Shown here piece by piece: positions 19,535 to 51,907 of a DNA stretch of 64,000 nucleotides; the stretch's first letter is position 1; each line of letters begins with the position of its first letter. The stretch is from positions 578,122 to 642,121 of the forward strand of contig JACKFA010000002.1 of assembly GCA_020632715.1 (NCBI GenBank). The letters are read 5' to 3'. The stretch comes from Deltaproteobacteria bacterium (GTDB taxonomy: Bacteria > Myxococcota_A > UBA9042 > PHBI01). The translations under genes and the position numbers were made by a program. The notes below the pieces were generated by a model. The model ran no database searches. It was not told the DNA's origin and saw only the letters and a program-made list of their open reading frames with translations.

Positions 19535-20976
<1,442 letters not shown>

Positions 20977-22915: not shown

Positions 22916-23095
22916 CAGGGCCTCCGCGGGGTGTGGTGGTAGTCGCCTACATGTCTCGGGGATCGCGCGGCCCGAGTCAACGCTCTGGCGGCGCGGTCTC
23001 GCCAGCGCGCGCGGTCGTGAACCTCGCGATCGCGGAGCTCGACTCCGTGCTCGCGAGGCTGGCCCCGCGCGCCGGCTGGCGCCCCGGCCCCCCGA

Positions 23096-23869: not shown

Positions 23870-23997
23870 CTCGCGCCTCCATCGCTGTGGTGGGGTCTCG
23901 ACGCCCGTAGCTGGCCAGGCGCGTCCGTCGACTCTCGACCTTCCCGCGCCCCCGCGCAAGGGACGGCCAAGTTCGATCGGGGGCGGCGCCCCCGAGC

Positions 23998-26565: not shown

Positions 26566-26577
26566 GCGAACCGGACG

Positions 26578-27096: not shown

Positions 27097-27493
27097 CGTT
27101 TTCCCCCGCTTTTCGTTCTGTGACTGATGACGGTGGGAGGTCCCCCACCTGGTTCACCCACGGTAAGGGACCCCCGAGAGCCGGATCCATAGCCTTCCAG
27201 GCGGCCGCGCCGTACCCGGATACGGCCGATCGGGCGCTCACCCCGCTCTTTGGCGGCTCATCCGTGATCGGCGATAACGCAGCGATTACATTTTCTTACG
27301 CTTTCCGTCTTCAGCCGCGCGCCGTCGGCCGCCCGCGCCGGATCGTGGCGCGTCGTACTCATGACCGCGCTACGGGCCGCCCCGAGCCCCTCGGTCACCC
27401 GGTTCGAGCCCCGGTCCCAGAAAGCCGAAGGCCCGCCGGCGCTGACGCCGACGGGCCCTCCGTCATCTCACCGGGCGAACAGCCCGGACCGCG

Positions 27494-30400
27494 CTACCAG
27501 TTCCTGTTCGACGCCGACCCGTCCGCGCCCGCCTGGCCGGCCTGCCCGACGGACGTCCCGCCGAACCCGCCGCGCCCGCCGAAGCCGCCCGAGAGGAACG
27601 TGTTGAAGTTCTGGAAGGTCGGCGTCCCGCTGTAGTTGTGCAGGTAGATGCCGAACGAGGCGCCGCCCTGGCCGCCGCCGCCGCCACCGCCGTGGCCGCC
27701 GTCGCCGCCCTGGCCGCCGCGGCCGCCGAAGCCCATCGCGTAGGTCCAGCGCCCGTAGGTGAGGCCGCCGTCGCCGCCGTTGCCGCCGAGGCCGCCCTTG
27801 CCGCCGCTGCCGCCGGCGCCGCCGTCGCCGCCCGTGCCGCGCGTCACCGTGTTGCCCGTGATGACCGGCAGGCTCCCGATGGCCGTCGACGCCGTGTTCG
27901 TGATGAAGATGCCGAACGACCCGCCACCCGGCTGCCCGCCGGTGCCCGCCGTGCCGCCGCAGCCGCCCGCGCCGCCGCCACCACCCGACCCGCCGAGCGA
28001 GTCGTCGGTGTTGTCGCCGCCCGACGAGCAGTCGCTCGTCACGTCCGCGCCGCCGCCGGCGCCACCGCCGCCGCCGCCGCCGCCGTGCGTGCCCGCCGTG
28101 CCGGCCGAGCCCGCGTAGCCCTTCCACTCGAACGACGTGACCTGACCGTTGTTCGCCGCCGCGCCCGCGCCGCCCGACCGGTCCGTCCCGCGCCCGCCGT
28201 TCGCGCCCGGGAGACCCGTCGCCGAGTAGCCGCCCGTGCCGAACGTGCCGCAGTTCGTGCTCTTCCGGTCGTGGCCGCCCTCGCCGCCGCCGCCCGCCGT
28301 GCCGTTGCCGGTGCCGGCCGTGCTGCCGCCGCCGCCCGAGGGCTGCTGGTCGTAGTCGGTGCCGCTCTCGAGCGTGTTCGGGCACTTCGCCGAGGCGCCG
28401 CCGCCGCCCGCGACGCTCGTGCCGCCGCAGGTGTTGCTGCCGCCGCCGCCGCAGCTCGTCGCGTCCTTCGTGTTCGTGTCCGAGTTCCAGCAGTTCGGCA
28501 CGTTGCCAGGGACGTCCGCGGCGCTCGTGCAGTTGTTGTACGTGTTCGTGAGGATCGAGCGCTCGCCGATCTGCCCGTTGCCGCCGTCGCTCCCGAGCGT
28601 CCCGTTCGAGCCGTTGGTGCCGACGCCGCCCGAGCCGCCGAAGATCACGTTGCTCCGGATCTCGAGCTTGTTGTTCGAGTCCTTCACCCAGATCGCGTAG
28701 CTGTTGCCGCTCGGCGCGAAGCTCGACTGCCCGTCGATGATGAAGCCCTCGAGGACGGTGGTCTTCGTCGTGATGCCCTGCGCGATGATGGTCTTCACGT
28801 GCGTCACGATGGACGACGCCCCGCGGATCGTCGTGTTCGTCGCCGCCACGTTCCGCTCCCACGTGTCCGCGCGGTAGCCGCCGAGGAGCGACACGCCGTC
28901 GACGAGCGACACCGTCTCCTCGTAGAGCCCGTCCGCCACGAGCACCTTCGTCCGGCCCGCCGCCACCGCGCGCGTGATGCCGTAGCCGATGGTGCGGCAC
29001 GGGAAGTTCCCGCCGCCCGTGCCCGTCCCGACCGGGCCGAGGCCGCAGCCCGCCGTGTCCTGCGCGAGCGCCTGCGTGTTCGACACGTAGATCGCGACCG
29101 GGTCGAGCATGAACTCGCAGCCGTCGTCCGGGACGCCGTTCAGGTTGTAGAAGTAGTTCGTCACACCCGCGCAGCGCGGGTTCGTGCTCCCCGGCGCGCA
29201 GCACTGGAGCCCGCACGTCGGCGTGCCCGTCGCGTTGCACGTGCCGTAGCCGTTCGCCTTCGCGAAGATCGTCGTACAGTCGGTGAAGCAGTTCCCGCAG
29301 AAGTCATCGCGGTAGTACTTGCCCTGCGCGTTGACGAAGCCGTTGTCGGTGACGCCGTTGCAGTCGTTGTCGAGGAGGTCGCAGGTCTCCGTGCCCGCGG
29401 TGCCGGCCGTCGCCGAGCAGGACACGCCGTTGCCGCCCGCGTTGCAGATGTAGTTGCCGAACGCCTTGCACGTGCCGACGCCGACGCTGCAGAGCTGCCC
29501 CTTCGTCGGGTAGTCCTCGTCGATGGCGCCGTCGCAGTCGTCGTCGAGGTTGTTGCAGAGCCCCGTCTCGTTCGACACCGCCGGCGTCCCGCCGCTCTTG
29601 CTGCACTCCGTCGCGCTCCCGTTCGCCGAGCACTGGTAGACGCCCGTCTGCTGGCACACGCCCTGGCCCATCGTGCACGGCTGGCCCTTGTTCGCCCACG
29701 CCGCGTTCTCGTCGACCTGCCCGTTGCAGTCGTTGTCGACGCCGTCGCAGATCTCCGTCGACGCCGCCCCCGCGACCGCGTTGCACGTCGTGCTCGCGCC
29801 GTTCGCCGTGCACACGTAGAACCCGAAGCGCTGGCAGGCGCCGACGCCGTTGCTGCAGCTCTGGTTCAGGTTGCCGAAGCCCTCGTCGGTCGTGCCGTCG
29901 CAGTCGTCGTCCTGGTAGTTGCAGATCTCGGCCGCCGGGGTCTTGCCGACGCACGTGAGGCCCGACGACCCGCCCGCGCAGTCCTGGACACCGGCGCACG
30001 AGCCGAACCCGTTCGTGATGCTGCAGCTCTGGCCGCGCCCGGCGACGTCGTCGATGGCGCTGTTGCAGTTGTTGTCGACGTTGTCGCAGATCTCCGTCGC
30101 GGGCGTGAGCGCCGTGCAGGAGCTCCAGCCGGTCGACGGGTTGCACGTCTCGCTGCCGTAGCAGGTGCCGATCGCGTTCGACTTCAGGCAGGTGCGGGTC
30201 TTCCCGGTGTCACCCGCGAGGCACGTGCACGACGCCGACTGCGGCACGCACTGCTTGAAGCCGCCCGTCACGTCCTGGCACGTGTAGCCGCTCGGGCACA
30301 CGCCCGCCGCCGTCCCGTGCAGGTTGCCCGCGCTGCAGTCGATGCCGCAGTACTGGCCGCCGTCGAGCGCGAGGCACTTGTCGCCCGGGGTCGGGCAGTT

Positions 30401-33400
30401 CGAGTCCGACGCGCACGACTGGCACGCAGCGCTCGTCGCCGGGAGGCACGTCAGCGGCCCCGCCTTGTAGTACCCGGCCGCGCACGTCGCCACCTCGCAG
30501 CGCGGGGCGCCGCCGTTCTCGACGCACGTCGCCGTCGCGTTCGGGATGGACCCGGCGCACGACACGCCGCACGTCCCGCAGTTCGCGTTGTTCACGTAGT
30601 AGCCGTTCGCGTTCTTGAAGGACTCGTCGATCTGCCCATCGCAGTTGTCGTCCTTGAAGTTGCACGTCTCGGCCGCCGGCGTCGCCGCCGGGCACTGCCA
30701 GCCGCCCGTGCCGCCGCACGTCCAGCTCGCCGAGCACGTCCCGTTCGCGTTCGTCACCGCGCACGCCGTCGTCGGCGCCGTCGCCCCCTCGTCGACGGAG
30801 CTGTTGCAGTTGTCGTCGAGGCCGTTGCACGTCTCGGCCGCCGGGACCTTGGCGTTGCAGCCCGTCCACCCGACCGACGGGTTGCACGTCTCGTTGCCGT
30901 AGCACGTGCCGTTGCCGTTCGTGCTCGAGCAGAGGCGCGTCTTCCCAGCGTCGCCCGCGAGGCAGTCACACGCCCCCGACTGCGGCACGCACTGGTTCGG
31001 CCCGCCCGCGAACGCCTGGCACACGAAGCCCGCGTTCTGGCAGCTCCCGGCCGCCGTCCCGTGCACGTTGCCCGCGCTGCAGTCCTGCCCGCAGAACTTC
31101 CCGCTCCCGATGGTGAGGCAGCGGTCGCCCGGGTTCCCGCAGTCGCCGTCGACCACGCACGGCGAGCACGCCGTCGCCGTCGCCGGGAGGCACGACGTCG
31201 CGCCCGCCACGTAGTAGCCGACGTCGCAGCTCTCGACCTCGCAGCGCGGGGTGCCGTTGTTCAGGCGGCACGTCGCCGTCGCGTGCGGGAGGACGCCCGT
31301 GCACGACGAGCCGCACGTCCCGCAGTTCTGGTCGTTCACGTACTTCCCGCTCTGCTTGAAGTCCTCGTCGACCTGCCCATCGCAGTCGTTGTCCGCGAAG
31401 TCGCACGTCTCGGCCGCCGGCGTCGCCGCCGGGCACACCCAGCCGCCCGCGCCCTGGCACTGCCAGCCCGCCGAGCACGTCCCGTACGCGTTCGTCACGG
31501 CGCACGGGTCCGTCGGCGCCGCGACGCTCTCGTCCGCCTGGCCGTTGCAGTTGTCGTCGAGGCCGTTGCAGGTCTCGGCCGCCGGCGTCTTCGCCGAGCA
31601 CCCGTACCAGCCGCTCGTCGGGTTGCAGGTCTCGCTGCCGAAGCACGTCCCGCTCGCGTTCGTCGCCTGGCAGGTGCGGGTCTTCCCGCTGTCACCGGCG
31701 CGGCACGCGCAGCTGTGCGACGTCGGCACGCACACGTTCGCGCCGCTCGCCTGCGCCTCGCAGCTGTAGCCCGACGGGCACTGCCCCGCCGGCGTCCCAT
31801 AGGCGTTGCCGGCGTCGCAGGAGCGGGCGCACACGTTCGCCCCGTCGAGCGCGATGCACTTGTCGCCGGGCGTCCCGCAGTTCGCGTCGGTGGCGCACGC
31901 GAGGCACGTGTTGTCCGTCGCCGGGAGGCACGTCAGCGCGCTCGCCTTGTAGTAGCCCGTCGCGCACGTCGCGACCTCGCAGCGCGGGGCGCCGCTCGCC
32001 GCCGAGCACGTCGCCGTCGCGTTCGCGATGCTGCCGGCGCAGGAGATCCCGCACGCGCCGCAGTTCGCGTCGCTCACGTACTGGCCGGACGCGTTCTTGA
32101 ACGCCTCGTCGACCTGGCCGTTGCAGTTGTCGTCGAGGTAGTTGCAGGTCTCGGCCCCGGGCGTCGCCGCCGGGCACTGCCAGCCGCTCGCCCCGCCGCA
32201 CGTCCAGCTCGCCGAGCACGTCCCGTTCCCGTTCGTGTTCGCGCAGGACTGCGTCGGCTGCACGGCGCCCTCGTCGACCTGGCTGTTGCAGTTGTCGTCG
32301 AGGCCGTTGCACGTCTCGGCCGCCGGGACCTTCGCGTTGCACGTCCCCCAGCCGCTCGTCGCGTTGCAGGTCTGCGTGCCGTAGCACGTGCCGTTGCCGT
32401 TCGCGTTGGAGCAGAGCCGCGTCTTGCCGTCGTCGCCCGCGAGGCAGTCGCACGCCCCGGACTGCGGCACGCACTGGTTCGGGCCGCCCGCGAACGCCTG
32501 GCACGTGAAGCCGCTCGTCGCGCACGTCCCGGCCGCCGTGCCGTGCACGTTCCCGGCGCTGCAGTCCTGCCCGCAGAACTGGCCGCCGCCGATGGTGAGG
32601 CAGCGGTCGCCCGGGTTCCCGCAGTCCGCGTCGACCGAGCACGGCGAGCACGCCGTGACCGTCGCCGGGAGGCACGCCGTGGCGCTCGCCTTGTAGTAGC
32701 CGACGTCGCACGTCAGCACCTCGCAGCGCGGCGTCGTGCCGTTCAGCTTGCACGTCGCGGTCGCGTTCGGCAGCACCCCGTCACACGACGCGCCGCACGT
32801 CCCGCAGTTCTGGTCGTTCACGTACTTGCCGTTGACCTTGAAGGTCTCGTCGACCTGCCCATTGCAGTTGTCGTCGACGAAGTTGCAGGTCTCGGCCCCG
32901 GGCGTCGCCGCCGGGCACTGCCAGCCGCTCGCCCCGCCGCACGTCCAGCTCGCCGAGCACGTCCCGTTCGCGTTCGTCGCCTGGCACGGGTCGGTCGGCG
33001 CGGTCACCGCCTCGTCGACGGCGCCGTTGCAGTTGTCGTCCTGGCCGTTGCACGTCTCGGCCGCCGGCGTCTTCGCCGAGCACCCGAACCACCCGCTCGC
33101 CGGGTTGCAGGTCTCCGTCCCGAAGCACGTGCCGCTCGTGTTCGCCTTCTGGCAGGTCCGCGTCTTGCCGTTGTCCGCCGTGAGGCACGAGCAGCTGTGC
33201 GAGCTCGGCACGCACACCTGCGCGCCGCTGCCCTGCGTCTCGCACGCGTACCCGGCCGGGCACTGGCCCGCCGGCGTCCCGTAGGCGTTGCCGGCGCCGC
33301 AGCTCCGGGCGCACACGTTCGCCCCGTCGAGCGCGATGCACTTGTCGCCGGGCGTCCCGCAGTTCGCGTCGGTGGCGCACGCGAGGCACGAGTTGTCCGT

Positions 33401-36400
33401 CGCCGGGAGGCACGTCAGCGCGCTCGCCTTGTAGTAGCCCGCCGAGCACGTCGCCACCTCGCAGCGCGGGGTGCCGCTCTGAGCCGAGCACGTCGCCGTC
33501 GCGTTCGCGATGCTGCCGGCGCAGGAGATCCCGCAGGCGCCGCAGTTCTGGTCGTTCACGTACTGGCCGGCCGCGTTCTTGAACGCCTCGTCGACCTGCC
33601 CATCGCAGTTGTCGTCCTGGCCGTTGCACGTCTCGGTGACCGGCGTCGCGGGGCTGCACTGCCAGCCGCTCGCCCCGCCGCACGTGTACGCCGCCGAGCA
33701 CGTCCCGACGCCCGCGACCGTGTTGTCGCAGGTGGCCGGCGTGTGCGCGACGCCCTCGTCCGCCTGCCCGTTGCAGTTGTCGTCGACGCCGTTGCACGTC
33801 TCGGCCGCCGGCGTCCGCGCCGAGCACCCGACCCAGCCCTGCGTCGAATCACACGTCTCCGCGCCGTAGCACGTCCCCTGCGCGTTCGAGCTCGAGCACG
33901 TCCGCGTCTTCCCGTTGTCGCCCGGGAGGCAGTCGCACGTCCCGCTCTGCGGCACGCACTGCTGCATCCCGCCGCCGAAGTCGTTGCACGTGAAGCCCGC
34001 CTCCTGGCAGGTCCCCGCCGGCACGCCGTGGAGGTTCCCCGCCGAGCAGTCCTGCCCGCAGACCTGCTGCGTGCCGACCGTGAGGCACCTGTCCCCCGGC
34101 GTCGGGCAGTCCCCGTCGCCCGTGCACGTCCGGCACACGTTCGAGCTCGACGCCGCGCACGAGAGCGGCCCCGTCTGGAAGTAGCCGCTGTCGCACGCCA
34201 TGACCTCGCAGCGCGGGTTGCCGCCGTTGTACGCGCACCCGGCCGTCGCGTTCGGGATGGCCCCGGCGCACGAGATCCCGCACGACCCGCAGTTCTGGTC
34301 GTTCACGTACTTGCCGTTCTGCTTGAAGTCCTCGTCGGTCGACCCATCGCAGTCGTTGTCCGCGAAGTCGCAGGTCTCCGCCGCGGGCGCCGCCGCCGGG
34401 CACTGCCAGCCGCTCGCCCCGCCGCACGTCCACGCCGCCGAGCAAGTGCCGTTCGCGTTCGTCGCCTGGCACGCCGTCGTCGGCTGCGTCGGCGACTCGT
34501 CGATCTGCCCGTTGCAGTTGTCGTCCGCGCCGTTGCACGTCTCGGCCGCCGGCGTCTTCGCCGTGCAGCCGCCCCAGCCCGTCGCCGGGTCGCACGTCGC
34601 CGTCCCGAAGCACGTCCCCTGCGTGTTCGTCGCCGAGCAGGTGCGCGTGTTCCCCGCGTTGCCCGGGAGGCACGAGCAGCTGCCGCTCGTCGGCATGCAC
34701 TGCTGGCTCCCGTCGAACGCGCCGCACGTGTAGCCCGTCGGGCACTGGCCCGCCGCGTAGCCGTGCGCGTTCCCGGCGCTGCAGTCGCGGCCGCAGAAGT
34801 TGCCGCCGTCCATCGGGATGCAGCGGTCGCCCGGCGTCGGGCAGTTCGCGTCGGTCACGCACGGCGTGCACTGCGAGTCCACGGCCGGCAGGCACGTGAG
34901 CGGGCTCACCTGGTAGTAGCCCGGGTCACACGTCGCCACCTCGCAGCGCGGGGCGCCATTGTGCACCGCACACGTCTCGGTCGCGTTCGGGATCTTCCCA
35001 GAGCACGAGACCCCGCAAGAACCGCAGTTGTCGACGTCCGTGTAGAGCCCTTGTGCGTTGCGGAAGGACTCGTCCACCTGGCCGTTGCAGTTGTTGTCCT
35101 GGAAGTCGCAGCTCTCCGCGACGGGCGTCGCCGCCGGGCACTGCCAGCCGCTCGCCCCCTGGCACACGTAGCTCGCCGAGCACGTCCCGACGCCCGCGAC
35201 CACGTTGTCGCAGGTGGCCGGCGAGTGCGTCACGGCCTCGTCGATCTGCCCGTTGCAGTTGTCGTCCTGGCCGTTGCAGCTCTCGGCCGCCGGCGTCCGC
35301 GCCGTGCACGTCCCCCAGCCGCTGTGCGAGTCGCACGTCTCGGTCCCGAAGCACGTCCCCTGCGCGTTCGCGACGCTGCAGGTGCGCTGCTTCCCGTCGT
35401 TCGCCGGCAGGCAGTCGCACGCGCCGCTCTCCGGCACGCACTGGTACACGCCGCCGCCCGTGATGTCGTTGCAGACGAAGCCCGCGACGTCGCACGATCC
35501 CGGCGTCAGCCCGTGCAGGTTCCCCGGGCCGCAGTCCTTGCCGCAGTAGCCGCCGCCGTCGAGCGGCACGCACACGTCACCCGGCGTCGGGCAGTCGTTG
35601 TCGGTCGCGCACGACGTGCAGAGCGAGTTCGTCGCCGGCGAGCACGAGAGCGGCCCGGTCTTGTAGTAGCCGCTGTCGCACTCGCGCACGACGCAGCGCG
35701 GCTGCCCGCTCGCGTTGACCTCGCACATCGCCGACGCGTTCGGGATGGCGCCGTCGCACGACACGCCGCAGCTCCCGCAGTTCTCGTCGTCGACGTACTT
35801 CCCGGCCGCGTTCTTGAACGACTCGTCGATCTGCCCATTGCAGTTGTTGTCCGCGAAGTCGCACGTCTCGGCGACCGGCGTCGCGACGTCGCACTGCCAG
35901 CCGCTCGCCCCGCCGCACACGTAGGTCGCCGAGCACGTCCCGACGCCCGCGACGGTGTTGTCGCACGTCGCCGGCGAGTGCGTGACGCCTTCGTCGATGG
36001 CGCCGTTGCAGTTGTCGTCCGCGCCGTTGCAGCTCTCGGCCGCCGGCGTCTTCGCCGTGCACGTCGTCCAGCCCGACGCCTCATGGCACGTGGAGCTCCC
36101 GAAGCACGTCCCGTCCGTGTTCGTGTTCGAGCACGTCCGCGTCCGCCCCTCGTCGCCCGGGAGGCACGAGCAGCTGTTGGTCGTCGGGATGCACTGCATG
36201 CCGCCGTCGAACGCCGAGCACTGGTAGCCGCTCGGGCACTCGCCGGCCGCGTAGCCGTGCTTGTTGCCGGCGCTGCAGTCGCGCCCGCAGAAGCTCCCGC
36301 CGTCCATCGGGATGCAGCGGTCGCCCGGCGTCGGGCACTGCGCGTCGGTCACGCAGGGCGTGCACTGCGAGTCCGTCGCCGGGAGGCACGTGAGCGCGCT

Positions 36401-39400
36401 CACCTGGTAGTAGCCGGCGTCGCACGACCCGACCTCGCAGCGCGGCGCCCCGTTCGTCACGGCGCACGTCTCGGTCGCGTTCGGGATCCGCCCGGTGCAG
36501 GAGATCCCGCAGCTCCCGCAGTTGTCGACGTCCGTATAGAGGCCGGCCGCGTTCCGGAACGGCTCGTCGGCCTGCCCGTCGCAGTTGTTGTCCTGGAAGT
36601 CGCACGTCTCGGCGACCGGCGTCGCGACCGGGCACTGCCAGCCGCTCGTCCCCTGGCACGTGTACGTCGCCGAGCACGTCCCGACCCCCGCGACCGCGTT
36701 GTCGCACGTCGCCGGCGAGTGGGTGACCTCCTCGTCGATGCGCCCGTCGCAGTTGTCGTCGAGGCCGTTACAGGTCTCGGTCGCGGGCGTCTTCGCCGTG
36801 CACGTGCTCCAGCCCATCGTCGACTCGCAGGTCTCCGTCCCGAAGCACGTCCCGCTCGTGTTCGTCGTGCTGCACGTCCGCTGCTTGCCCTGGTTCGCCG
36901 GGAGGCAGTCGCACGCGCCGCTCTCTGGCACGCACTGGAAGACCGTCCCCGCCCCGCCGATGTCCTGGCACTCGAAGCCGGCGACGTCACACGTCCCGGG
37001 CGTGAGCCCGTGGAGGTTGCTCGGGCCGCAGTCCTTGCCGCAGAAGCCACCCGTCGCGAGCGGCACGCAAACGTCGCCCGGCGTCGGGCAGTCGTCGTCC
37101 GTCGCGCACGGCAGACACAGGTCGCTCGTCGCCGGCTGGCAGCTGAGCGGCCCCGTCTGGAAGTAGCCGAAGTCGCACTCGCGCACGACGCAGCGCGGCT
37201 GCCCGCTCGACCCGACCGCGCACATCGCGACCGCGTTCGGGATGGCACCCTCGCAGCTGATCCCGCAGCTCCCGCAGTTCTCGTCGTCGACGTACTTGCC
37301 GGCGCCGTTCTTGAACGTCTCGTCGACCTGCCCATCGCAGTTGTTGTCCGCGAAGTCGCAGCTCTCGGCCTCGGGCGTCCCCGGGTCGCACTGCCACCCG
37401 CTCGCGCCGCCGCACGTGTAGCTCGCCGAGCACGAGCCGACCCCGATCACCGCGTTCGAGCACGTCGCCGGGTCGTGCGTGACCCCCTCGTCGATGCGCC
37501 CGTCGCAGTTGTCGTCGACGCCGTTGCACGTCTCGACCGCCGGCACGCGCGCCGTGCAGCCCGACCAGCCCGCCGCCGGGTCGCACGTCTCCGACCCGAA
37601 GCAGCTCCCGCTCGCGTTCTGGTTGATGCAGGTCCGGGTCTTCCCGCCGTCGCCCGGGAGGCACGAGCAGCTGTTCGACGTCGGCACGCACTGCGCCACG
37701 CCGGCGCCGAGGTCCTGGCACGTGAAGCCCGCGTCACACTCGCCCGCGGGGCGCCCGTGCACGTTCGTCGCCGAGCAGTCGCGCCCGCAGTAGTTGCCGC
37801 CGTCCATCGGGAGGCACTTGTCGCCCGGGGTCGGGCAGTTGGCGTCGGTCGCGCACGCGAGGCAGCTCGAGTCCTGCGACGGGAGGCACGTCGACGCGTT
37901 CGCCCGGTAGTACCCCTCGGCGCACGCGGCCACCTCACAGCGGGGTGTGCCATTTCGCACAATGCACTGCGTCATCGCGTTCGGGATGGCGCCGACGCAG
38001 CTGATCCCGCAGCTCCCGCAGTTCTCGTCGTCGACGTACTGCCCGCTCGCGTTCTTGAAGTCCTCGTCGACCTGCCCATCGCAGTCGTTGTCCTTGTTGT
38101 CGCAGACGTCCTCGGCGGGCGTCGCCGCGACGCAGCTCCAGCCGTTCGCCCCCTTGCAGCTGTAGTCGGCCGTGCACGTGCCCCAGGTGTTCGTCACCTC
38201 GCACGTCGGCGGCGAGTGCACGACGCCCTCGTCCGCCTGGCCGTTGCAGTTGTCGTCGACGCCGTTGCACGTCTCGGCCGACGGCTCGAGCGCCGTGCAG
38301 CCCTCCCAGCCGTTGCCGCTCCCGGCGCCGCAGGTCTCGGTGCCGAAGCACGTCCCGAAGTCGTTCTGCTTCCGGCACGTCCGCATGTCGCCGTCGTTCG
38401 GCTCGAGGCACGTGCAGCTCCCGCTGTCGGGGGCGCACTGCCGCGCCCCGCCCGCCACGTCGACGCAGCTGTAGCCGGGGGCGCAGACCCCCTCGGGCAC
38501 GCCGTGCGCGTTGCCGGCGCTGCAGTCGCGCCCGCAGAACTTGCCGCCGTCGAGCGAGAGGCACTTGTCGCCCGGGGTCGGGCAGTTCGCGTCGGTCACG
38601 CACGGCACGCAGGTCGTGTCGGTCGCCGGGAGGCACGTGAGCGGCCCCACCTGGTAGAAGCCCTCCTCGCAGCTCGCGACCTCGCAGCGCGCGCGCGTCC
38701 CGCTCACGACGCAGTGGCTCGTCGCGTTCGGCAGGAGCCCGTCGCACGAGACGCCGCAGGTGCCGCAGTTCTCGTCGTCCACGTAGAGCCCGGCCGCGTT
38801 CTTGAACGCCTCGTCGACCTGGCCATCGCAGTTGTCGTCCTGGAAGTTGCAGAGCTCGGCGACGGGGGTCTGCACCGGGCACTCCCAGCCGCTCGCCCCG
38901 CTGCACACGTACTGCGCGGCGCACGTGCCGCTCGCGTTCGACTCGGTGCAGCTGACCGGGTCGTGCGCGACGCCCTCGTCCGCCTGCCCGTTGCAGTTGT
39001 CGTCGACGCCGTTGCAGGTCTCGGCCGCCGGCGTCCGCGCCGAGCACGCCGACCACCCGGGCGACTGCGCCGGGTCGCACTCGCTCGTGCCGGTGCACGC
39101 GCCGAAGCCGTTCTGGTTCACGCAGGGGCGGAGGCGCCCCTCCATGCCGGGGAGGCACGTGCAGGACTTCGTCTCGGGGATGCAGCGCCCGGCCTCGCAG
39201 GAGAAGCCGTTGCCGCAGTCGCTCGTGTCCGAGCAGCCGCGCGTGCAGAAGCTGCCGCCGTCGAGGCTCGTGCACTGGCCGCCGGGGAGCTCGGCGCACT
39301 GGGCGTTGTCGGAGCACGGCGAGCACGCCACGGCGCCGGTCGTCGGGATGCAGACGCGGTTCGTGTCCGGCGGGACGTAGAAGCCGTCGAGGCAGGAGAG

Positions 39401-41230
39401 GGCGACGCAGACGGGGACGCCGTTATCGACCACGCACTGGGTGCTCGACGAGAAGAGGATGGCCTCGTCGCAGCCGCGCCCGCAGATCCCGCAGTTGTCG
39501 TCGCTGTCGTAGGGGCCCGTCGGGCTCTCGCGGAAGTCCTCGTCCGTGGCCCCGTCGCAGTCGTTGTCGATGACGTCGCACACCTCGGCGGCCGGCGTCT
39601 TCGCGTCGCAGACCCAGCCGTTCGCGCCCGCGCACTGCCACTGCCCCGAGCACGTGCCGAACTCGTTCGTCACCTGGCAGGGCTCGGTCGGCGGCGTGAC
39701 CGCCTCGTCGACGCGCCCGTTGCAGTTGTCGTCGATGCCGTTACAGGTCTCGGGCGACGGCACGTAGGCGCTGCACTGGCTCCAGCCGTTCGCCGGGCCG
39801 CCGCACGTCTGGAGGCCGGCGCACGTGCCGTACTCGTTCGACTCGGTGCAGGGGCGCGACTTGCCCTGGTCGCTCGTGCGCGAGCAGCTGCAGCTGTTGC
39901 TGTACGGCAGGCACTGGTGGCGCCCGTCGCCGAGCTCGGTGCAGGTGTAGCCGTTCGGGCAGCTCCCCTCGTTGTAGCCGTTGAGGTTGTCGGCGCCGCA
40001 GTCCTGGCCGCAGAAGAGGCCGCCGTCGAGCGGCACGCAGGCGTTGCCCGGGACGACGCAGTTCGCGTCCTCGGTGCAGGGGAGGCAGGCCGCCTCGATG
40101 ACCGGGAGGCAGGTCGTGGGGCCGGCGAGGTAGAAGCCGGGGGCGCAGGAGGTCACGACGCAGCGGGCGACGCCGCTCTCGACGCGGCAGCCGCTGACGG
40201 CGTTCGGGAAGAAGCCCTCGCAGCTGTTGCCGCAGACGCCGCAGTCGGTGTCGAGCGTGTAGAGGCCGGTCGCCTGGTCGCGGAAGCCCTCGTCGATGTG
40301 GCCGTCGCAGTTGTTGTCCTCGTAGTCGCAGGACTCGTTCCGCGCCTCCTGACCGACGCAGGTCCACCCCTCGGCGCCGCTGCAGACGCGGTGGCCGGCG
40401 CACACGCCGAACTCGTTCGTCACCTCGCAGGGGGTGTCGTCGACGAGGTTCTCGTCCGTGAGGAGGTTGCAGTTGTCGTCCATGCCGTTACAGATCTCGG
40501 CGGTCGGGACGTGCGCGTCGCACTCGCTCCAGCCGTCCTCACCGAGGCAGGTGCGGAGGCCGAAGCAGGTGCCGGCGTCGTTCTTGGCGCTGCAGGGCTC
40601 CTGGACGCCCTCGTTGCCGACGGTGCAGGCGCAGGTGCCCGTGACCGGCACGCACTGCGAGCTCGACGCGCCCGACGCGCCCTCGGAGGTCACCTGCTCG
40701 CAGGCGTAGCCGCTCGGGCACTCCTCCTGCGAGTTGCACGCCTGGGTGCAGCGCTGGCCGTCCTCGAAGGTGAGGCACATGCCCTGGCCGCACTGCGTGT
40801 CGATGGTGCACGCCTGGCAGAGGCGGCTCGCCTTCGGGACGCACACGAAGGTGACGTCCTGCTGGCCCGAGATCCCGACGCAGCTCCAGCCGTCGGGGCA
40901 GTCCTCCTCGCAGAGCTTGGTGCAGACGGGGCCGAGGCTCGAGTCGACGCACCACCCCGAGAGGCAGTCGGTGTTCTCGAAGCACGGGGCGCCGAACTCG
41001 CCGGTGCCCGCGGTGGTGTCGCCGTCGCTCGTGTCAGCCTGCGTGTCGGGCTGCACGTTGATGTCGATCGGCGTGAACGTGTCCGCGTCGACGGCCGAGT
41101 CGACGGCCTCGCTCGTGTCCTTCGAGACGACGTCCGAGTCGGTCTCGTCCGCCGAGTCGTGGCAGGCCGCGAGCGCGCTCGTGAGCGCGAAGGCGGCCGC
41201 GAGGCACGCAATACGATGGCTGCGGGTCAT
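27494..41230 (-). CDS. Giant (4578-aa) Cys-rich repeat lipoprotein. About 14 tandem ~265-aa modules, each carrying two MopE-like putative metal-binding motifs, then a right-handed beta-helix region and a Gly-rich C-terminal tail.
   Basis: Lipoprotein signal MTRSHRIACLAAAFALTSALAAC. Recurring module: CxCLPGD-G-TRTC...GTCFG-ETC...TPAAETCNGVDDNCNGQADEG...GTCSA-Y-C-GASGWQC...ETCDFADNNCDGQVDE-FKN--G-YVDDENCGSCG-SC...RCEV--C--GYY...CLPCATD--CPTPGD-C-P-DGG-FCG-DC. The C-terminal ~800 aa include a pectate-lyase-like beta-helix (ILVADGLYEETVSL...GFIIDG...) and GGxGG repeats. The + strand 4557-aa ORF is an antisense artefact. Confidence 0.8.
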   Translation of the reverse strand: MTRSHRIACLAAAFALTSALAACHDSADETDSDVVSKDTSEAVDSAVDADTFTPIDINVQPDTQADTSDGDTTAGTGEFGAPCFENTDCLSGWCVDSSLGPVCTKLCEEDCPDGWSCVGISGQQDVTFVCVPKASRLCQACTIDTQCGQGMCLTFEDGQRCTQACNSQEECPSGYACEQVTSEGASGASSSQCVPVTGTCACTVGNEGVQEPCSAKNDAGTCFGLRTCLGEDGWSECDAHVPTAEICNGMDDNCNLLTDENLVDDTPCEVTNEFGVCAGHRVCSGAEGWTCVGQEARNESCDYEDNNCDGHIDEGFRDQATGLYTLDTDCGVCGNSCEGFFPNAVSGCRVESGVARCVVTSCAPGFYLAGPTTCLPVIEAACLPCTEDANCVVPGNACVPLDGGLFCGQDCGADNLNGYNEGSCPNGYTCTELGDGRHQCLPYSNSCSCSRTSDQGKSRPCTESNEYGTCAGLQTCGGPANGWSQCSAYVPSPETCNGIDDNCNGRVDEAVTPPTEPCQVTNEFGTCSGQWQCAGANGWVCDAKTPAAEVCDVIDNDCDGATDEDFRESPTGPYDSDDNCGICGRGCDEAILFSSSTQCVVDNGVPVCVALSCLDGFYVPPDTNRVCIPTTGAVACSPCSDNAQCAELPGGQCTSLDGGSFCTRGCSDTSDCGNGFSCEAGRCIPETKSCTCLPGMEGRLRPCVNQNGFGACTGTSECDPAQSPGWSACSARTPAAETCNGVDDNCNGQADEGVAHDPVSCTESNASGTCAAQYVCSGASGWECPVQTPVAELCNFQDDNCDGQVDEAFKNAAGLYVDDENCGTCGVSCDGLLPNATSHCVVSGTRARCEVASCEEGFYQVGPLTCLPATDTTCVPCVTDANCPTPGDKCLSLDGGKFCGRDCSAGNAHGVPEGVCAPGYSCVDVAGGARQCAPDSGSCTCLEPNDGDMRTCRKQNDFGTCFGTETCGAGSGNGWEGCTALEPSAETCNGVDDNCNGQADEGVVHSPPTCEVTNTWGTCTADYSCKGANGWSCVAATPAEDVCDNKDNDCDGQVDEDFKNASGQYVDDENCGSCGISCVGAIPNAMTQCIVRNGTPRCEVAACAEGYYRANASTCLPSQDSSCLACATDANCPTPGDKCLPMDGGNYCGRDCSATNVHGRPAGECDAGFTCQDLGAGVAQCVPTSNSCSCLPGDGGKTRTCINQNASGSCFGSETCDPAAGWSGCTARVPAVETCNGVDDNCDGRIDEGVTHDPATCSNAVIGVGSCSASYTCGGASGWQCDPGTPEAESCDFADNNCDGQVDETFKNGAGKYVDDENCGSCGISCEGAIPNAVAMCAVGSSGQPRCVVRECDFGYFQTGPLSCQPATSDLCLPCATDDDCPTPGDVCVPLATGGFCGKDCGPSNLHGLTPGTCDVAGFECQDIGGAGTVFQCVPESGACDCLPANQGKQRTCSTTNTSGTCFGTETCESTMGWSTCTAKTPATETCNGLDDNCDGRIDEEVTHSPATCDNAVAGVGTCSATYTCQGTSGWQCPVATPVAETCDFQDNNCDGQADEPFRNAAGLYTDVDNCGSCGISCTGRIPNATETCAVTNGAPRCEVGSCDAGYYQVSALTCLPATDSQCTPCVTDAQCPTPGDRCIPMDGGSFCGRDCSAGNKHGYAAGECPSGYQCSAFDGGMQCIPTTNSCSCLPGDEGRTRTCSNTNTDGTCFGSSTCHEASGWTTCTAKTPAAESCNGADDNCNGAIDEGVTHSPATCDNTVAGVGTCSATYVCGGASGWQCDVATPVAETCDFADNNCNGQIDESFKNAAGKYVDDENCGSCGVSCDGAIPNASAMCEVNASGQPRCVVRECDSGYYKTGPLSCSPATNSLCTSCATDNDCPTPGDVCVPLDGGGYCGKDCGPGNLHGLTPGSCDVAGFVCNDITGGGVYQCVPESGACDCLPANDGKQRTCSVANAQGTCFGTETCDSHSGWGTCTARTPAAESCNGQDDNCNGQIDEAVTHSPATCDNVVAGVGTCSASYVCQGASGWQCPAATPVAESCDFQDNNCNGQVDESFRNAQGLYTDVDNCGSCGVSCSGKIPNATETCAVHNGAPRCEVATCDPGYYQVSPLTCLPAVDSQCTPCVTDANCPTPGDRCIPMDGGNFCGRDCSAGNAHGYAAGQCPTGYTCGAFDGSQQCMPTSGSCSCLPGNAGNTRTCSATNTQGTCFGTATCDPATGWGGCTAKTPAAETCNGADDNCNGQIDESPTQPTTACQATNANGTCSAAWTCGGASGWQCPAAAPAAETCDFADNDCDGSTDEDFKQNGKYVNDQNCGSCGISCAGAIPNATAGCAYNGGNPRCEVMACDSGYFQTGPLSCAASSSNVCRTCTGDGDCPTPGDRCLTVGTQQVCGQDCSAGNLHGVPAGTCQEAGFTCNDFGGGMQQCVPQSGTCDCLPGDNGKTRTCSSSNAQGTCYGAETCDSTQGWVGCSARTPAAETCNGVDDNCNGQADEGVAHTPATCDNTVAGVGTCSAAYTCGGASGWQCSPATPVTETCNGQDDNCDGQVDEAFKNAAGQYVNDQNCGACGISCAGSIANATATCSAQSGTPRCEVATCSAGYYKASALTCLPATDNSCLACATDANCGTPGDKCIALDGANVCARSCGAGNAYGTPAGQCPAGYACETQGSGAQVCVPSSHSCSCLTADNGKTRTCQKANTSGTCFGTETCNPASGWFGCSAKTPAAETCNGQDDNCNGAVDEAVTAPTDPCQATNANGTCSASWTCGGASGWQCPAATPGAETCNFVDDNCNGQVDETFKVNGKYVNDQNCGTCGASCDGVLPNATATCKLNGTTPRCEVLTCDVGYYKASATACLPATVTACSPCSVDADCGNPGDRCLTIGGGQFCGQDCSAGNVHGTAAGTCATSGFTCQAFAGGPNQCVPQSGACDCLAGDDGKTRLCSNANGNGTCYGTQTCNATSGWGTCNAKVPAAETCNGLDDNCNSQVDEGAVQPTQSCANTNGNGTCSASWTCGGASGWQCPAATPGAETCNYLDDNCNGQVDEAFKNASGQYVSDANCGACGISCAGSIANATATCSAASGAPRCEVATCATGYYKASALTCLPATDNTCLACATDANCGTPGDKCIALDGANVCARSCDAGNAYGTPAGQCPSGYSCEAQASGANVCVPTSHSCACRAGDSGKTRTCQATNASGTCFGSETCNPTSGWYGCSAKTPAAETCNGLDDNCNGQADESVAAPTDPCAVTNAYGTCSAGWQCQGAGGWVCPAATPAAETCDFADNDCDGQVDEDFKQSGKYVNDQNCGTCGSSCTGVLPHATATCRLNNGTPRCEVESCDVGYYVAGATSCLPATATACSPCVVDGDCGNPGDRCLTIGSGKFCGQDCSAGNVHGTAAGSCQNAGFVCQAFAGGPNQCVPQSGACDCLAGDAGKTRLCSSTNGNGTCYGNETCNPSVGWTGCNAKVPAAETCNGLDDNCNSSVDEGATAPTTACAVTNANGTCSASWTCGGTGGWQCPAATPAAETCNFKDDNCDGQIDESFKNANGYYVNNANCGTCGVSCAGSIPNATATCVENGGAPRCEVATCAAGYYKAGPLTCLPATSAACQSCASDSNCPTPGDKCLALDGGQYCGIDCSAGNLHGTAAGVCPSGYTCQDVTGGFKQCVPQSASCTCLAGDTGKTRTCLKSNAIGTCYGSETCNPSTGWSSCTALTPATEICDNVDNNCNSAIDDVAGRGQSCSITNGFGSCAGVQDCAGGSSGLTCVGKTPAAEICNYQDDDCDGTTDEGFGNLNQSCSNGVGACQRFGFYVCTANGASTTCNAVAGAASTEICDGVDNDCNGQVDENAAWANKGQPCTMGQGVCQQTGVYQCSANGSATECSKSGGTPAVSNETGLCNNLDDDCDGAIDEDYPTKGQLCSVGVGTCKAFGNYICNAGGNGVSCSATAGTAGTETCDLLDNDCNGVTDNGFVNAQGKYYRDDFCGNCFTDCTTIFAKANGYGTCNATGTPTCGLQCCAPGSTNPRCAGVTNYFYNLNGVPDDGCEFMLDPVAIYVSNTQALAQDTAGCGLGPVGTGTGGGNFPCRTIGYGITRAVAAGRTKVLVADGLYEETVSLVDGVSLLGGYRADTWERNVAATNTTIRGASSIVTHVKTIIAQGITTKTTVLEGFIIDGQSSFAPSGNSYAIWVKDSNNKLEIRSNVIFGGSGGVGTNGSNGTLGSDGGNGQIGERSILTNTYNNCTSAADVPGNVPNCWNSDTNTKDATSCGGGGSNTCGGTSVAGGGGASAKCPNTLESGTDYDQQPSGGGGSTAGTGNGTAGGGGEGGHDRKSTNCGTFGTGGYSATGLPGANGGRGTDRSGGAGAAANNGQVTSFEWKGYAGSAGTAGTHGGGGGGGGAGGGADVTSDCSSGGDNTDDSLGGSGGGGGAGGCGGTAGTGGQPGGGSFGIFITNTASTAIGSLPVITGNTVTRGTGGDGGAGGSGGKGGLGGNGGDGGLTYGRWTYAMGFGGRGGQGGDGGHGGGGGGGQGGASFGIYLHNYSGTPTFQNFNTFLSGGFGGRGGFGGTSVGQAGQAGADGSASNRNW
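29740..40660. repeat. Coding tandem-repeat array, period ~0.8 kb with ~14 copies, inside the giant lipoprotein gene.
   Basis: The protein-level periodicity of the Cys-rich modules maps to these DNA coordinates (approximate). Copies are diverged (roughly 60-80% identical by eye), which suggests an old expansion. Confidence 0.6.
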
Positions 41231-41350
41231 CAGGATCCCCGAGTCTGCGAGAGAGGTCTACGCGCGAACGTGAGGGCGTCCGCTCGTCGGAATGTCGATC
41301 GTGAGGGCTGAAGGAAAACTTGAGGCTTTCTTGTAACGATCCTTCAGGTC

Positions 41351-41656
41351 ATGCTCCCGGGCATGGCCGCCATCGAGGACGATCCCATCGGCTGTCGCGT
41401 GCTCCTCCACGTGTCGCCGCGCGCCAGCAGGACGCGCGTCGTCGGGCTCCACGACGGGCGCGTGAAGCTCCAGGTCGCCGCCCCCCCGGTCGACGGCGAG
41501 GCGAACGCCGAGGTCGAGCGCTTCCTCGCGCGGGCGCTCGACGTGCCGCGCGACCGCGTGGCGATCGTCGCGGGCGCGACGGGCAAGCGGAAGGCGGTGC
41601 GCGTCGAGGGCGTGACGGCGGCGGCGGCCGCGGCGGCGCTCGGCGTCGAGAGCTGA
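41351..41656 (+). CDS. DUF167 (YggU/UPF0235) family protein
   Basis: 101 aa with ...RVLLHVSPRASRTRVVGLHDGRVKLQVAAPPVDGEANAEVERFLARALDVPRDRVAIVAGATGKRKAVRVEG, which matches the YggU family pattern. Confidence 0.7.
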   Translation: MLPGMAAIEDDPIGCRVLLHVSPRASRTRVVGLHDGRVKLQVAAPPVDGEANAEVERFLARALDVPRDRVAIVAGATGKRKAVRVEGVTAAAAAAALGVES

Positions 41657-41745
41657 GGCGCGCGCGGCGTCGTCGCGCGGGCGGCGGGCGACGATTCCGT
41701 TCGGAGCGACGCCGTGGTACCACAGCCCCGCTCCGGAGGTGCCCC

Positions 41746-43779: not shown

Positions 43780-43781
43780 GC

Positions 43782-45089: not shown

Positions 45090-45233
45090 ATCCCGCGAGC
45101 CTTTGCGTGACCTCCAAACAAAGGCGGACAGCAGAGGGTGGTTCATGACAAAATCGGTCATCTTTCGGCAACGGATGTCGCAGCGTCCAGCGCGGAAGGG
45201 AGAGAGCTTGCAGCCACGATCCCGGGAGGAGAC

Positions 45234-51905: not shown

Positions 51906-51907
51906 GC

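Follow-up and report, generated by a model that had tools for sequence, protein, structure and literature searches.

A 4578-residue predicted lipoprotein of Myxococcota with tandem 30-cysteine modules and a C-terminal beta-helix domain

[quoted passage not shown] Another described system, MopE*/CorA of methanotrophs, is the namesake of the Pfam motif PF11617 (Cu-binding_MopE). These are surface-associated copper proteins (PMC3423442, PMC3912023) whose copper site involves two His and a Trp-derived kynurenine (PMC3423442); their Ca2+ is regarded as structural (PMC3912023). Motif-level similarity to PF11617 also appears in the teneurin literature (PMC3278476). Our search of the literature on PF11617, "MopE-related protein" and giant Cys-rich lipoproteins of Myxococcota found no paper on the family analyzed here.

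The present analysis deals with a giant protein encoded in a 64-kb stretch of Myxococcota DNA (hereafter the window, i.e. the whole stretch that was analyzed). Our best reading, to which we give a probability of roughly 0.5, is that this protein is a surface-tethered rigid stalk presenting a glycan- or matrix-binding head. It retains the giant surface adhesin put forward in a previous sequence-only reading of this DNA, with a presumed surface location.

The gene and its predicted envelope anchor

The interval 27494-41230 of the minus strand is one uninterrupted ORF with an ATG start (ORF list); with 13.7 kb, it takes about a fifth of the window. It had been proposed to be a single gene, and its base composition confirms this: GC is 0.56, 0.61 and 0.985 at codon positions 1, 2 and 3, whereas the overlapping plus-strand ORF (27638-41311, 4557 aa) has a position-1 GC of 0.98 and a junk translation rich in Ala, Arg and Val. 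Therefore, the minus strand was considered as coding and the plus-strand ORF was rejected as an antisense artefact. The features of the gene, all on the minus strand, are the following:

27494..41230, minus strand: complete CDS of the predicted lipoprotein (stop codon 27494-27496), based on the ORF list, GC3 and about 28 full-length relatives of the same architecture
41162..41230, minus strand: lipoprotein signal peptide, aa 1-23 (MTRSHRIACLAAAFALTSALAAC), with lipobox LAAC and Cys23 as predicted lipidated N-terminus
41000..41161, minus strand: acidic Asp/Ser/Thr-rich linker, aa 24-77 (13 Asp, 9 Thr, 6 Ser, 0 Cys), predicted flexible tether
40634..40999, minus strand: N-terminal Cys domain (17 Cys), aa 78-199, in which the last sub-domain of the module is present twice more (module HMM)
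37670..40633, minus strand: modules W1-W4, aa 200-1187, ancestral part of the array (30 Cys each; best-hit mapping and NJ tree)
30230..37669, minus strand: modules W5-W14, aa 1188-3667, expanded part of the array (identity matrix, nucleotide identity, best-hit mapping and tree)
34679..35419, minus strand: module W8, aa 1938-2184, chosen for modelling (all beta-hairpins, 30 Cys, two PF11617 motifs)
29129..30229, minus strand: truncated 15th module followed by three short MopE-plus-hairpin units and a CGNC sub-domain, aa 3668-4034 (module HMM and motif pattern)
28559..29128, minus strand: right-handed parallel beta-helix (pectin-lyase fold) with an N-terminal capping helix, aa 4035 to about 4224
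27497..28558, minus strand: Gly-rich continuation (35% Gly) with runs of GGX triplets, aa ~4225-4578 (pLDDT mostly >90, conserved Gly columns)

The encoded protein has a mass of 455 kDa and its mature form is strongly acidic (pI 4.05, 500 Asp and Glu versus 174 Lys and Arg). As previously claimed, the ORF opens with a lipoprotein signal: the N-terminus displays a basic n-region, a hydrophobic core (mean Kyte-Doolittle value of 2.13) and a lipobox that fits the pattern [LVI][ASTVI][GAS]C closing the signal peptide, i.e. all the features of a bacterial lipoprotein cleaved by signal peptidase II, and a lipobox-like Cys is found at the equivalent place in most relatives. The protein has no second hydrophobic segment beyond the signal peptide. 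Export by Sec, cleavage at the lipobox and acylation of Cys23 would thus fix the N-terminus in a membrane. A sorting rule based on residue +2 of lipoproteins is known from work on Myxococcus xanthus; since this residue is His and not Lys, the membrane would by default be the outer one. The linker that comes next (54 residues) is predicted from its composition to be disordered and flexible.

The cysteine modules and the growth of the array

Fourteen complete modules follow the N-terminal Cys domain. As initially described, they are Cys-rich and carry paired PF11617 motifs, but their period is ~247 aa (243-252 aa each) and not ~265 aa. Each contains exactly 30 Cys, all of which are invariant among 30 modules from 10 proteins. 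A pattern search detected 33 MopE-like motifs (15 pairs and three singles) in the protein, and the three other motifs noticed before were recovered 13 times (EGF-like head), 12 times (YVDDENCGSCG) and 12 times (CLPCxTDxxC). The module profile also accounts for both ends of the stalk: its positions 172-246 match the N-terminal Cys domain twice (i-E 5e-5 and 1e-10), a domain that shows 38-70% identity with the equivalent place in relatives, while the 15th module keeps the first 120 profile positions, with HMM domains 1-120, 13-89 and 25-166 within aa 3668-4034 and five MopE motifs in aa 3715-3950.

PF11617 is the only Pfam family that matches the giant protein (409 bits for a cut-off of 27, E 2e-125, 26 stretches), and the whole protein matches no NCBIfam family at E<=0.01. 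Therefore, of the known models that the modules had been expected to hit, PF11617 does match whereas the NCBIfam repeat models, including TIGR04201, do not. In the PDB, neither the module sequence (E<=1) nor the module profile (E<=10) matches any chain, MopE* included. The possibility, raised by the sequence-only reading against itself, that the modules are ordinary domains of a well-characterised family does not hold, since Pfam models nothing beyond the 14-residue motif; all the named relatives are "hypothetical proteins". The predicted structure of W8 (pLDDT 95.1) consists of beta-hairpins only. Membership of EGF/cbEGF arrays was rejected because neither Pfam models nor the structure reveal a six-Cys EGF domain, and membership of the TSP3 repeats was also rejected.

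Besides, the pattern D-x-[DN]-C-[DN]-G-x-x-D-[DE] fits 28 of the 33 motifs. Ca2+ loops of the DxDxDG type have Asp or Asn at positions 1, 3 and 5 and Gly at position 6, with an acidic pair downstream. Binding of Ca2+ by the motif loops is therefore plausible. An alternative is that the protein is an extracellular metal sponge or metallochaperone, whose 33 "Cu-binding_MopE" motifs bind copper or another transition metal. The strength of the PF11617 match, the very acidic character of the protein and the fact that MopE and CorA are surface copper proteins (PMC3423442, PMC3912023) would fit this proposal. However, no column of conserved His or Met was found in the motif region of the 30 modules, whereas two His and kynurenine are the ligands given for MopE*/CorA (PMC3423442), and the profile search mentioned above did not retrieve MopE*. 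Furthermore, the Cys residues occur in even, invariant sets that are typical of disulfides and not of free thiol ligands, the pattern of oxygen donors (Asp, Asn and Glu) suits Ca2+, and the metal binding of PF11617 is merely "putative" in Pfam's own wording. The metal sponge is thus improbable, MopE-type copper binding is not supported and the "metal-binding matrix protein" of the sequence-only reading has to be abandoned in its copper sense. This should also serve as a caution: a "Cu-binding_MopE" annotation is not evidence of copper binding.

Comparison with relatives points to how the stalk of the proposed surface-tethered adhesin reached its present length. Best-hit mapping and the NJ tree show that W1-W4 are one-to-one orthologous to modules 1-4 of relatives, that W9, W11 and W13 derive from ancestral module 5 and W10, W12 and W14 from module 6 (mapping and tree), and that (W5,W7) and (W6,W8) are a further duplicated pair. 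The syntenic orthologue (P0006) has six modules instead of 14, which amounts to a difference of 1988 aa (8 x 247) in protein length; other relatives have 7-15 modules, with both protein ends unchanged. These data indicate that eight modules were gained in the lineage of the window after its split from P0006, in two-module steps, so that the stalk doubled. The nucleotide identity between modules does not exceed 85%, their third positions are near saturation and no exact repeat is longer than 89 nt; the added modules are thus old copies, and the previous exclusion of a recent slippage agrees with this. By contrast, the "ancient, maintained array" proposed together with it has to be qualified: modules 1-4 are orthologous across relatives and the copies are old, but eight of the 14 modules are lineage-specific additions.

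Assembly is notoriously error-prone in repeat arrays, the DNA comes from a metagenome-assembled genome, and the exact protein is absent from a collection of 15 billion proteins in which IlvC from the same contig is present. The assembler might therefore have expanded, collapsed or chimerised the repeats, which would make the length of 14 modules wrong. Several observations make this very improbable. The identity and exact-repeat values given above leave no pair of modules above 85%, Tandem Repeats Finder detects no module-scale repeat in the gene, no stop codon interrupts the 13.7-kb frame, whose GC3 is maintained throughout, and every module keeps its 30 Cys. Moreover, the excess over P0006 is an integral number of modules, and relatives with 11 and 15 modules come from independent assemblies.

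The C-terminal domain, its family and the neighbouring genes

The last 544 aa are predicted to form a single solenoid-like domain. The switch to a beta-helix and then to a Gly-rich part had been correctly noticed, but it spans these 544 aa and not ~800 aa. Furthermore, the Gly-rich part is not of low complexity as had been stated: most of its 10-residue blocks are modelled with pLDDT >90, and the alignment of the domain has 107 conserved Gly columns as well as invariant C, W335, H479 and N426. Modelling of one module and of the C-terminal part, as suggested earlier, thus provided confident folds for both. The predicted head is similar in three-dimensional fold to solved members of the pectin-lyase fold (right-handed parallel beta-helix); about one third of the head aligns structurally with solved beta-helix proteins. 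A search of BFVD structures with the head found nothing past the ~170-residue beta-helix part (TM <=0.18), and the Gly-rich continuation has no match, and hence no solved counterpart, in Pfam, PDB or BFVD. Sequence and profile searches of the PDB with the head gave Gly-linker noise only, and no Pfam carbohydrate-binding model matches its sequence.

This fold is also that of polysaccharide lyases, hydrolases or epimerases, and the protein could be a stalk-mounted enzyme acting on prey walls or on exopolysaccharide, either foreign or made by the cell itself, catalysis being its primary function. This seems unlikely, since no Pfam enzyme or beta-helix model (Beta_helix, NosD, DUF1565 and Pel9A-like included) matches the head of the window or the heads of 14 relatives at E<=1. 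In addition, if hydrophobic and cap residues are set aside, E71, D88, R92 and N160 are the only non-Gly residues of the beta-helix part conserved at >=80% among these 15 diverse heads; these four lie in motifs typical of beta-helix caps or Asn ladders, and no catalytic constellation (Asp/Asp/Asp or Ca-site/Arg) was identifiable.

The protein ends with ...GADGSASNRNW and has no C-terminal hydrophobic segment. Several known types of surface protein were considered and rejected. There is no Autotransporter Pfam match, the C-terminal model is one solenoid-like domain and the terminal aromatic residue is not conserved, which excludes an autotransporter (T5SS); this residue varies family-wide (37 Phe, 24 Pro, 23 Asn and others) and was thus also discarded as an outer-membrane beta-signal. 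The protein carries no GGxGxDxUx nonapeptide, its Gly runs are GGX triplets and it has no HemolysinCabind match, so it is not an RTX adhesin (T1SS). Finally, MYXO-CTERM proteins (TIGR03901) end in Gly-Cys, a hydrophobic helix and an Arg-rich tail; the absence of any NCBIfam family and of a C-terminal hydrophobic segment excludes membership of this group.

A search with the C-terminal domain retrieved 1960 hits, of which 310 (as clusters) reach E<=1e-30, and the domain is located at the extreme C-terminus of 139 of the 145 representatives, mostly with 0-4 modules ahead of it. It defines a large unnamed family without Pfam model, throughout which this head is the conserved element. About 28 full-length relatives have the matching architecture, and the giant protein is the longest member among those found here. 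In other giant proteins of Myxococcota, sub-domains of the stalk precede other distal domains (TIG/LTD, NHL, beta-propeller or RHS), but only the present family has the 544-aa head and the 247-aa, 30-Cys module in complete form. A scan of the genome contigs with the head alignment responded mainly to Gly-run patterns and gave only three weak loci. Some genomes carry tandem paralogues, and the large downstream genes in two of the relatives' loci (L007 and L009) belong to the family; those in two others (L001 and L008) are unrelated to it.

These paralogues, the unusual and highly conserved Gly-rich surface, which could be an oligomerisation face, and the statement in PMC3325183 that proteins with Cys-rich repeats are characteristic of extracellular matrices would suit a released matrix scaffold. 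The lipobox would then serve for export only, or the protein would be shed, and the Gly-rich heads would self-associate into fibres or a mesh, as in fibrillin. We consider this as quite improbable because the family as a whole has kept the lipobox, as expected if the anchor is retained.

The genes around the giant gene provide no partner for the proposed anchored adhesin. The distance of 397 bp that separates it from the next gene (27097-27493) had been correctly measured, and a scan of this gap, downstream of the giant gene, for promoters and terminators found nothing. The adjoining locus, described before as an SCPU pilin/usher operon, does contain an usher (CooC_C/TcfC) and a PapD/TcfA-like chaperone; however, it is Tcf/CS1-like and its 172-aa "pilin" matches no SCPU model. 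Homologues of the usher, chaperone and pilin are absent from the loci of P0010, P0006, P0025, P0022 and P0016 and from the syntenic position of L002. Since co-occurrence is not conserved at the orthologous position and in the five other relatives' loci, this pilus locus was rejected as a functional partner and the association proposed earlier does not stand. More generally, no conserved export partner or other partner gene was found beside seven family loci. The other neighbours reported before were all recovered: Ddl-Ddl at 41320-43779, DmpA/Peptidase_S58 at 43782-44927, and a trypsin-like protease with the MopE motif at 56258-58771, whose tail looks MYXO-CTERM-like by eye (no NCBIfam model scored).

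Proposed role and comparison with known systems

In the stalk-and-head adhesin that we favour, about 85% of the protein (aa 78-4034) would be stalk: two tail sub-domains, 14 modules and a tapering end. Within each module, small sub-domains made of beta-hairpins would follow one another, held together by 15 disulfides, and two DxDxDG-like acidic loops would probably bind Ca2+. An array of this kind is expected to form a rod (455 kDa, pI 4) that is stiff, strongly acidic and resistant to proteases. Its far end would bear the beta-helix continuing into the Gly-rich region, a head type that phage tailspikes, the PfbA adhesin and polysaccharide-active enzymes use for extended glycans, which suggests glycan binding. 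The number of modules would set the distance between head and cell, and would change through unequal recombination in steps of two modules (about 1.5 kb).

A bolder version, which we regard as speculative and unlikely, would make the 247-aa module a new higher-order fold, i.e. a bacterial rod rigidified by Ca2+ in the manner of fibrillin or Notch, and the module count an evolvable molecular ruler that sets, in two-module steps, the reach of a new Gly-rich beta-solenoid head to glycans of prey or kin. The Gly-rich part, with its GGX-triplet runs and possibly a polyglycine-II-like packing, would then be a new structural type and, if true, the family would be a new class of Myxococcota-specific surface organelle.

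The family, which has no name, comprises several hundred or more sequence clusters in Myxococcota. Neither of its main parts, module or head, has a Pfam/NCBIfam model or a solved structure, and their definitions provide annotators with two new domain families. For structural biology, the interest lies in a confidently predicted disulfide-rich rod unit without PDB relative and in an unusual Gly-rich extension of a beta-helix. The six versus 14 modules of syntenic genes are a tidy natural case of stalk-length evolution through unequal recombination. Should the protein indeed be a surface adhesin, its family would be a candidate system by which uncultured myxobacteria attach to prey, kin or matrix.

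Among known systems, MopE*/CorA resembles what is proposed for the giant protein by its surface association and its structural Ca2+ site (PMC3912023), but it has no detectable sequence relation to the module, its copper ligands have no conserved counterpart there, and its size and architecture are entirely different. The "MopE-related" or "putative metal-binding motif-containing" proteins of Myxococcota share the 14-residue motif C-x3-D-[DN]-[DN]-C-[DN]-G-x2-D-E and the MopE-plus-hairpin sub-domain, and many of them are giants that also have the lipobox and the N-terminal Cys domain of the present family; they differ by carrying sub-domains only and by their distal domains (RHS, SUMF1, TSP3, NHL or LTD). 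The fibrillin/Notch cbEGF arrays, the thrombospondin type-3 repeats and the Cys-rich region of teneurins share a concept, i.e. stiff extracellular rods built from many small tandem units locked by disulfides and bearing acidic Ca2+ loops, as may be the case for the giant protein. With regard to the head, the beta-helix adhesins and tailspikes compared (PfbA of S. pneumoniae, phi29 gp12, the tailspike of cyanophage Pam1 and the autotransporter passenger UpaB) align with a third of it; unlike them, it continues into a Gly-rich part without PDB/BFVD counterpart and has no trimerisation or beta-barrel domain.

Like TraA, the giant protein would be a myxobacterial envelope protein whose tandem Cys-rich repeats separate the membrane anchor from a recognition domain. 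However, the polarity is reversed, with an N-terminal lipobox and a C-terminal head in the giant protein versus a PA14 head and a MYXO-CTERM anchor in TraA. The giant protein has neither MYXO-CTERM nor PA14, and its stalk is about ten times longer. Its repeats are unrelated to those of TraA, since TIGR04201 and the other NCBIfam models give no match.

The giant gene and its product

The GC content of the window is 70-79% throughout, and long ORFs arise on either strand of DNA with such a high GC content. Two almost co-extensive ORFs are found here, one of 4578 aa on the minus strand (27494-41230) and one of 4557 aa on the plus strand (27638-41311). The codon-position GC is 0.56/0.61/0.985 in the minus-strand frame and shows the mirror pattern in the plus-strand frame (0.98 at position 1); therefore, the minus strand carries the real gene. 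The plus-strand translation consists of about half Ala and Arg (25% Ala, 23% Arg, 16% Val). On codon-position GC and composition, this ORF was rejected as a gene and considered an antisense high-GC shadow ORF, which naive gene callers could report. Since the stop-to-stop frame reaches past the ATG at 41230 by only nine codons and GGGGA sits five bases upstream of this ATG, the start is well defined. The ORF list, codon-position GC and start check thus agree with the coordinates and length proposed by the sequence-only reading. The giant protein is absent from the protein collection (best match 56% identical), and IlvC of the window (7940-9100) is present there at 100%. In the deposited MAG, the giant protein may be unannotated or marked as a pseudogene.

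The protein starts with MTRSHRIACLAAAFALTSALAAC, in which a basic n-region is followed by a hydrophobic core of mean hydropathy 2.13 and by the lipobox LAAC; beyond this signal peptide, the whole protein has no further hydrophobic segment. The mature form (4556 aa, 455 kDa, pI 4.05) has 489 Cys, i.e., one lipid-anchor Cys and enough for 244 disulfides.

Segments of the giant protein between the signal peptide and the C-terminal head
Residues 24-77: Cys-free linker rich in Asp, Thr and Ser
Residues 78-199: N-terminal Cys domain, two copies of the last sub-domain of the module
Residues 200-3667: array of 14 complete modules (W1-W14 from the N-terminus) of 243-252 aa, with exactly 30 Cys apiece
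To about residue 4034: taper, a 15th module ending at 120 positions, then three short MopE-plus-hairpin units

The count of about 14 tandem modules with about 30 Cys and paired PF11617 motifs was thus right, and their period, initially given as about 265 aa, was measured at about 247 aa.

Module fold, motif and head

Each module opens with a CxC...RxC hairpin head. Two PF11617 motifs separated by a hairpin come next, then a YVDDxNCGxCG block that includes two hairpins, and last a tail sub-domain of the form CxPCxxDxxC. Of the models expected to match, only the 14-residue motif PF11617 was recovered: it is the sole Pfam match of the protein (26 stretches, E 2e-125), and NCBIfam, where Cys-rich repeat models were anticipated, gave zero matches. 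When the 14 modules of the window were aligned with 16 diverse ones taken from nine relatives, each of the 30 Cys columns proved invariant. From this alignment, AlphaFold2 predicted a fold made only of beta-hairpins (mean pLDDT 95.1, pTM 0.68). Searches of all PDB chains with the module sequence and profile returned no match even at E<=10, so that the EGF-like label given to the hairpin head is unsupported.

The motif consensus is C-[ND]-x-x-D-[DN]-[ND]-C-[ND]-G-x-[VI]-D-E. Its portion D-x-[DN]-C-[DN]-G-x-x-D-[DE], which we take to be the pattern of DxDxDG/EF-hand-like Ca2+ loops, fits 28 of the 33 motif copies; judging from this resemblance, Ca2+ binding by the modules is plausible, and it would suit a very acidic extracellular rod. 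A comparable motif-level comparison exists in the teneurin literature (PMC3278476). By contrast, the MopE-like label is not supported in the copper sense. MopE*/CorA bind copper through a kynurenine and two His (PMC3423442), and their Ca2+ site, which is separate, is regarded as structural (PMC3912023). No His or Met is conserved in the module, which therefore lacks a MopE-type copper site; furthermore, its relation to the crystallised copper protein MopE* is undetectable in the PDB sequence and profile searches (E<=10).

The C-terminal 544 residues, or head, are predicted to be one folded domain. Pfam did not match the head of the window protein or of 14 relatives even at E<=1.

Comparison list for the head (entry, value)
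phi29 preneck appendage gp12, 13.3
Cyanophage Pam1 tailspike, 13.3
Pneumococcal adhesin PfbA, 13.2
Bacteroides glycoside hydrolase (BT_1002), 13.1
Pectate lyase Pel9A, 13.1
Autotransporter passenger UpaB, 12.7

The rest of the head (about 350 residues) has 35% Gly and runs of GGX triplets. Initially described as low complexity, this Gly-rich part is not disordered: pLDDT is above 90 in most of its blocks, and the whole head has 107 conserved Gly columns. Several Cys, one Trp, one His and one Asn are invariant in 15 heads with just 37-64% identity, where no conserved catalytic constellation is evident. The Gly-rich part matched nothing in the PDB or in a viral structure library, and the giant protein contains no RTX nonapeptides.

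Family, array history and genomic neighbourhood

In a whole-protein search, about 28 relatives (2500-4400 aa) were found to have a lipobox, an N-terminal Cys domain, an array of 7-15 modules and the same head in common; their names are absent or "hypothetical protein" throughout. Of all members seen, the window protein is the longest. An exhaustive HMMER search of 1.84 billion representatives with the head alone gave 1960 matches (310 at E<=1e-30); where names are attached, they come from MAGs of Sandaracinaceae and Myxococcota and read solely "hypothetical protein". The head is the very C-terminus in 139 of the 145 representatives examined, most of which have 0-4 full modules before it and many a lipobox. 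The full 247-aa module is essentially confined to proteins bearing this head; other MopE-rich giants share sub-domains only and have different distal domains. Given its constancy, its C-terminal placement and the variable number of modules, the head is therefore the conserved defining element of the family, and the Cys-rich array before it (the stalk) varies in length. In two other loci (L007 16495-22521, L009 17033-22468), the gene directly downstream of a family member is a paralogue with lipobox, N-terminal Cys domain, modules and a ...SF/...NF end; therefore, the family also expands by whole-gene tandem duplication.

Modules of the window array are 42-81% identical in protein and at most 85% in nucleotides, with third positions close to saturated in most pairs. 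Exact repeats reach 89 nt at most, and Tandem Repeats Finder detected no module-scale repeat in the array. As first proposed, the array is not a recent slippage product, nor is it a repeat of the type that assemblers collapse. The 89-nt repeat (CDS positions 8261 and 9002, about 32140-32970 in the window) lies in W11 and W12, adjacent modules 74% identical overall, which suggests a local gene-conversion tract.

Homologues of three window neighbours surround the gene of one relative, P0006 (contig L002), arranged and oriented as in the window, which makes P0006 the positional orthologue of the window protein.

Syntenic genes of the window and L002
53515-55830: carbamoyltransferase, 62% identical
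50553-52814: Ser/Thr kinase, 75% identical
17453-20101 (-): uncharacterised 882-aa ORF, 61-62% identical to the 685-aa ORF at L002 23638-25695 (+)

The 882-aa ORF has no Pfam or NCBIfam match, and its 685-aa homologue is downstream of the orthologous giant gene. With 6 full modules, P0006 falls 1988 aa (8.05 modules) short of the window protein. By best-hit mapping and in a neighbour-joining tree, W1-W4 pair as one-to-one orthologues with modules 1-4 of three relatives, W9/W11/W13 cluster with ancestral module 5, W10/W12/W14 with module 6, and (W5,W7) and (W6,W8) are a further duplicated pair. Therefore, the array grew in the window lineage by two-module (about 1.5 kb) steps. The view of an ancient, maintained array is valid for W1-W4; the other modules are old but lineage-specific additions.

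Genes flanking the giant gene and other loci of the window
20299-21828 (+): chaperone, 509-aa ORF with PapD_N/TcfA-like domain
23998-26565 (-): usher (CooC_C, TcfC)
26578-27096 (-): putative pilin, secreted, 172 aa, no pilin-model match
41320-44927 (+): 819-aa protein with two D-Ala-D-Ala ligase/ATP-grasp halves, then directly a DmpA-type (Peptidase_S58) aminopeptidase
45138-46169 (+) and 47722-48636 (-): two MerR-family regulators with B12-binding domains (CarH-like light/B12 sensors), <3 kb apart, adjoined by GTP cyclohydrolase I (48844-49503)
56258-58771 (+): lipobox-bearing trypsin-like protease, three PF11617 motifs spaced by DGxCxxxDCxD units
61147-63999 (-), past the window end: bacterial alpha-2-macroglobulin (A2M, TED, receptor-binding domains)

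The window is chromosomal (leuA/leuB/ilvBC, malic enzyme). Upstream of the giant gene, the fused double ligase and the peptidase are divergent, and their pairing suggests D-amino-acid dipeptide metabolism. Downstream, a 397-bp gap precedes the 172-aa protein, usher and PapD-like chaperone. The sequence-only reading named these neighbours correctly except for the SCPU label: SCPU models do not match the 172-aa protein, and the usher and chaperone match TcfC/CooC and TcfA models, respectively. The region 20299-27096 of this Myxococcota MAG carries a chaperone-usher locus of the Tcf/CS1 (alternate) type. The window flanking genes are found beside relatives of the giant gene in none of six other loci, syntenic L002 included; therefore, the pilus locus is a lineage-specific neighbour and not a partner, and these loci revealed no conserved partner gene of the family. 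The proteins 56258-58771 (+) and 21806-22915 (-) have MYXO-CTERM-like tails (Gly-Cys, hydrophobic helix, Arg-rich); the NCBIfam MYXO-CTERM model scored neither, and the latter has only a weak Synerg-CTERM match. Taken with the IlvC match and the distribution of the family, these tails place the source of the window in Myxococcota.

Proposed design and known systems

Overall, the giant protein best fits a design of anchor, tether, stalk and head. An N-terminal lipid anchor would be followed by an acidic tether; next would come a long stalk whose modules are locked by disulfides and probably loaded with Ca2+, and at the distal end a beta-helix head like those with which tailspikes and adhesins bind extended glycans. 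Stalk length differs even between syntenic orthologues and both protein ends are preserved; because the head is constant and the stalk variable, the head would do the specific work and the stalk would set the reach. We infer lipidation, an outer-membrane or surface location and export despite the size of the protein, as well as disulfide formation and Ca2+ binding in the modules, stalk rigidity and length, and a ligand for the head.

Giant repetitive surface proteins that combine a stalk with a head are common in bacteria, and annotations of Myxococcota routinely include PF11617 motif arrays. This work newly defines a 247-aa, 30-Cys higher-order module with a confidently predicted fold and no solved relative, and a large family characterised by a Pfam-less beta-helix and Gly-rich head; it also documents stalk doubling relative to a syntenic orthologue. 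Although its repeats and anchor are unrelated to those of the giant protein (NCBIfam matches none), TraA of Myxococcus xanthus, whose Cys-rich repeats have been proposed to form a rigid stalk that displays a surface receptor (PMC3325183), is the closest functional precedent for this stalk.
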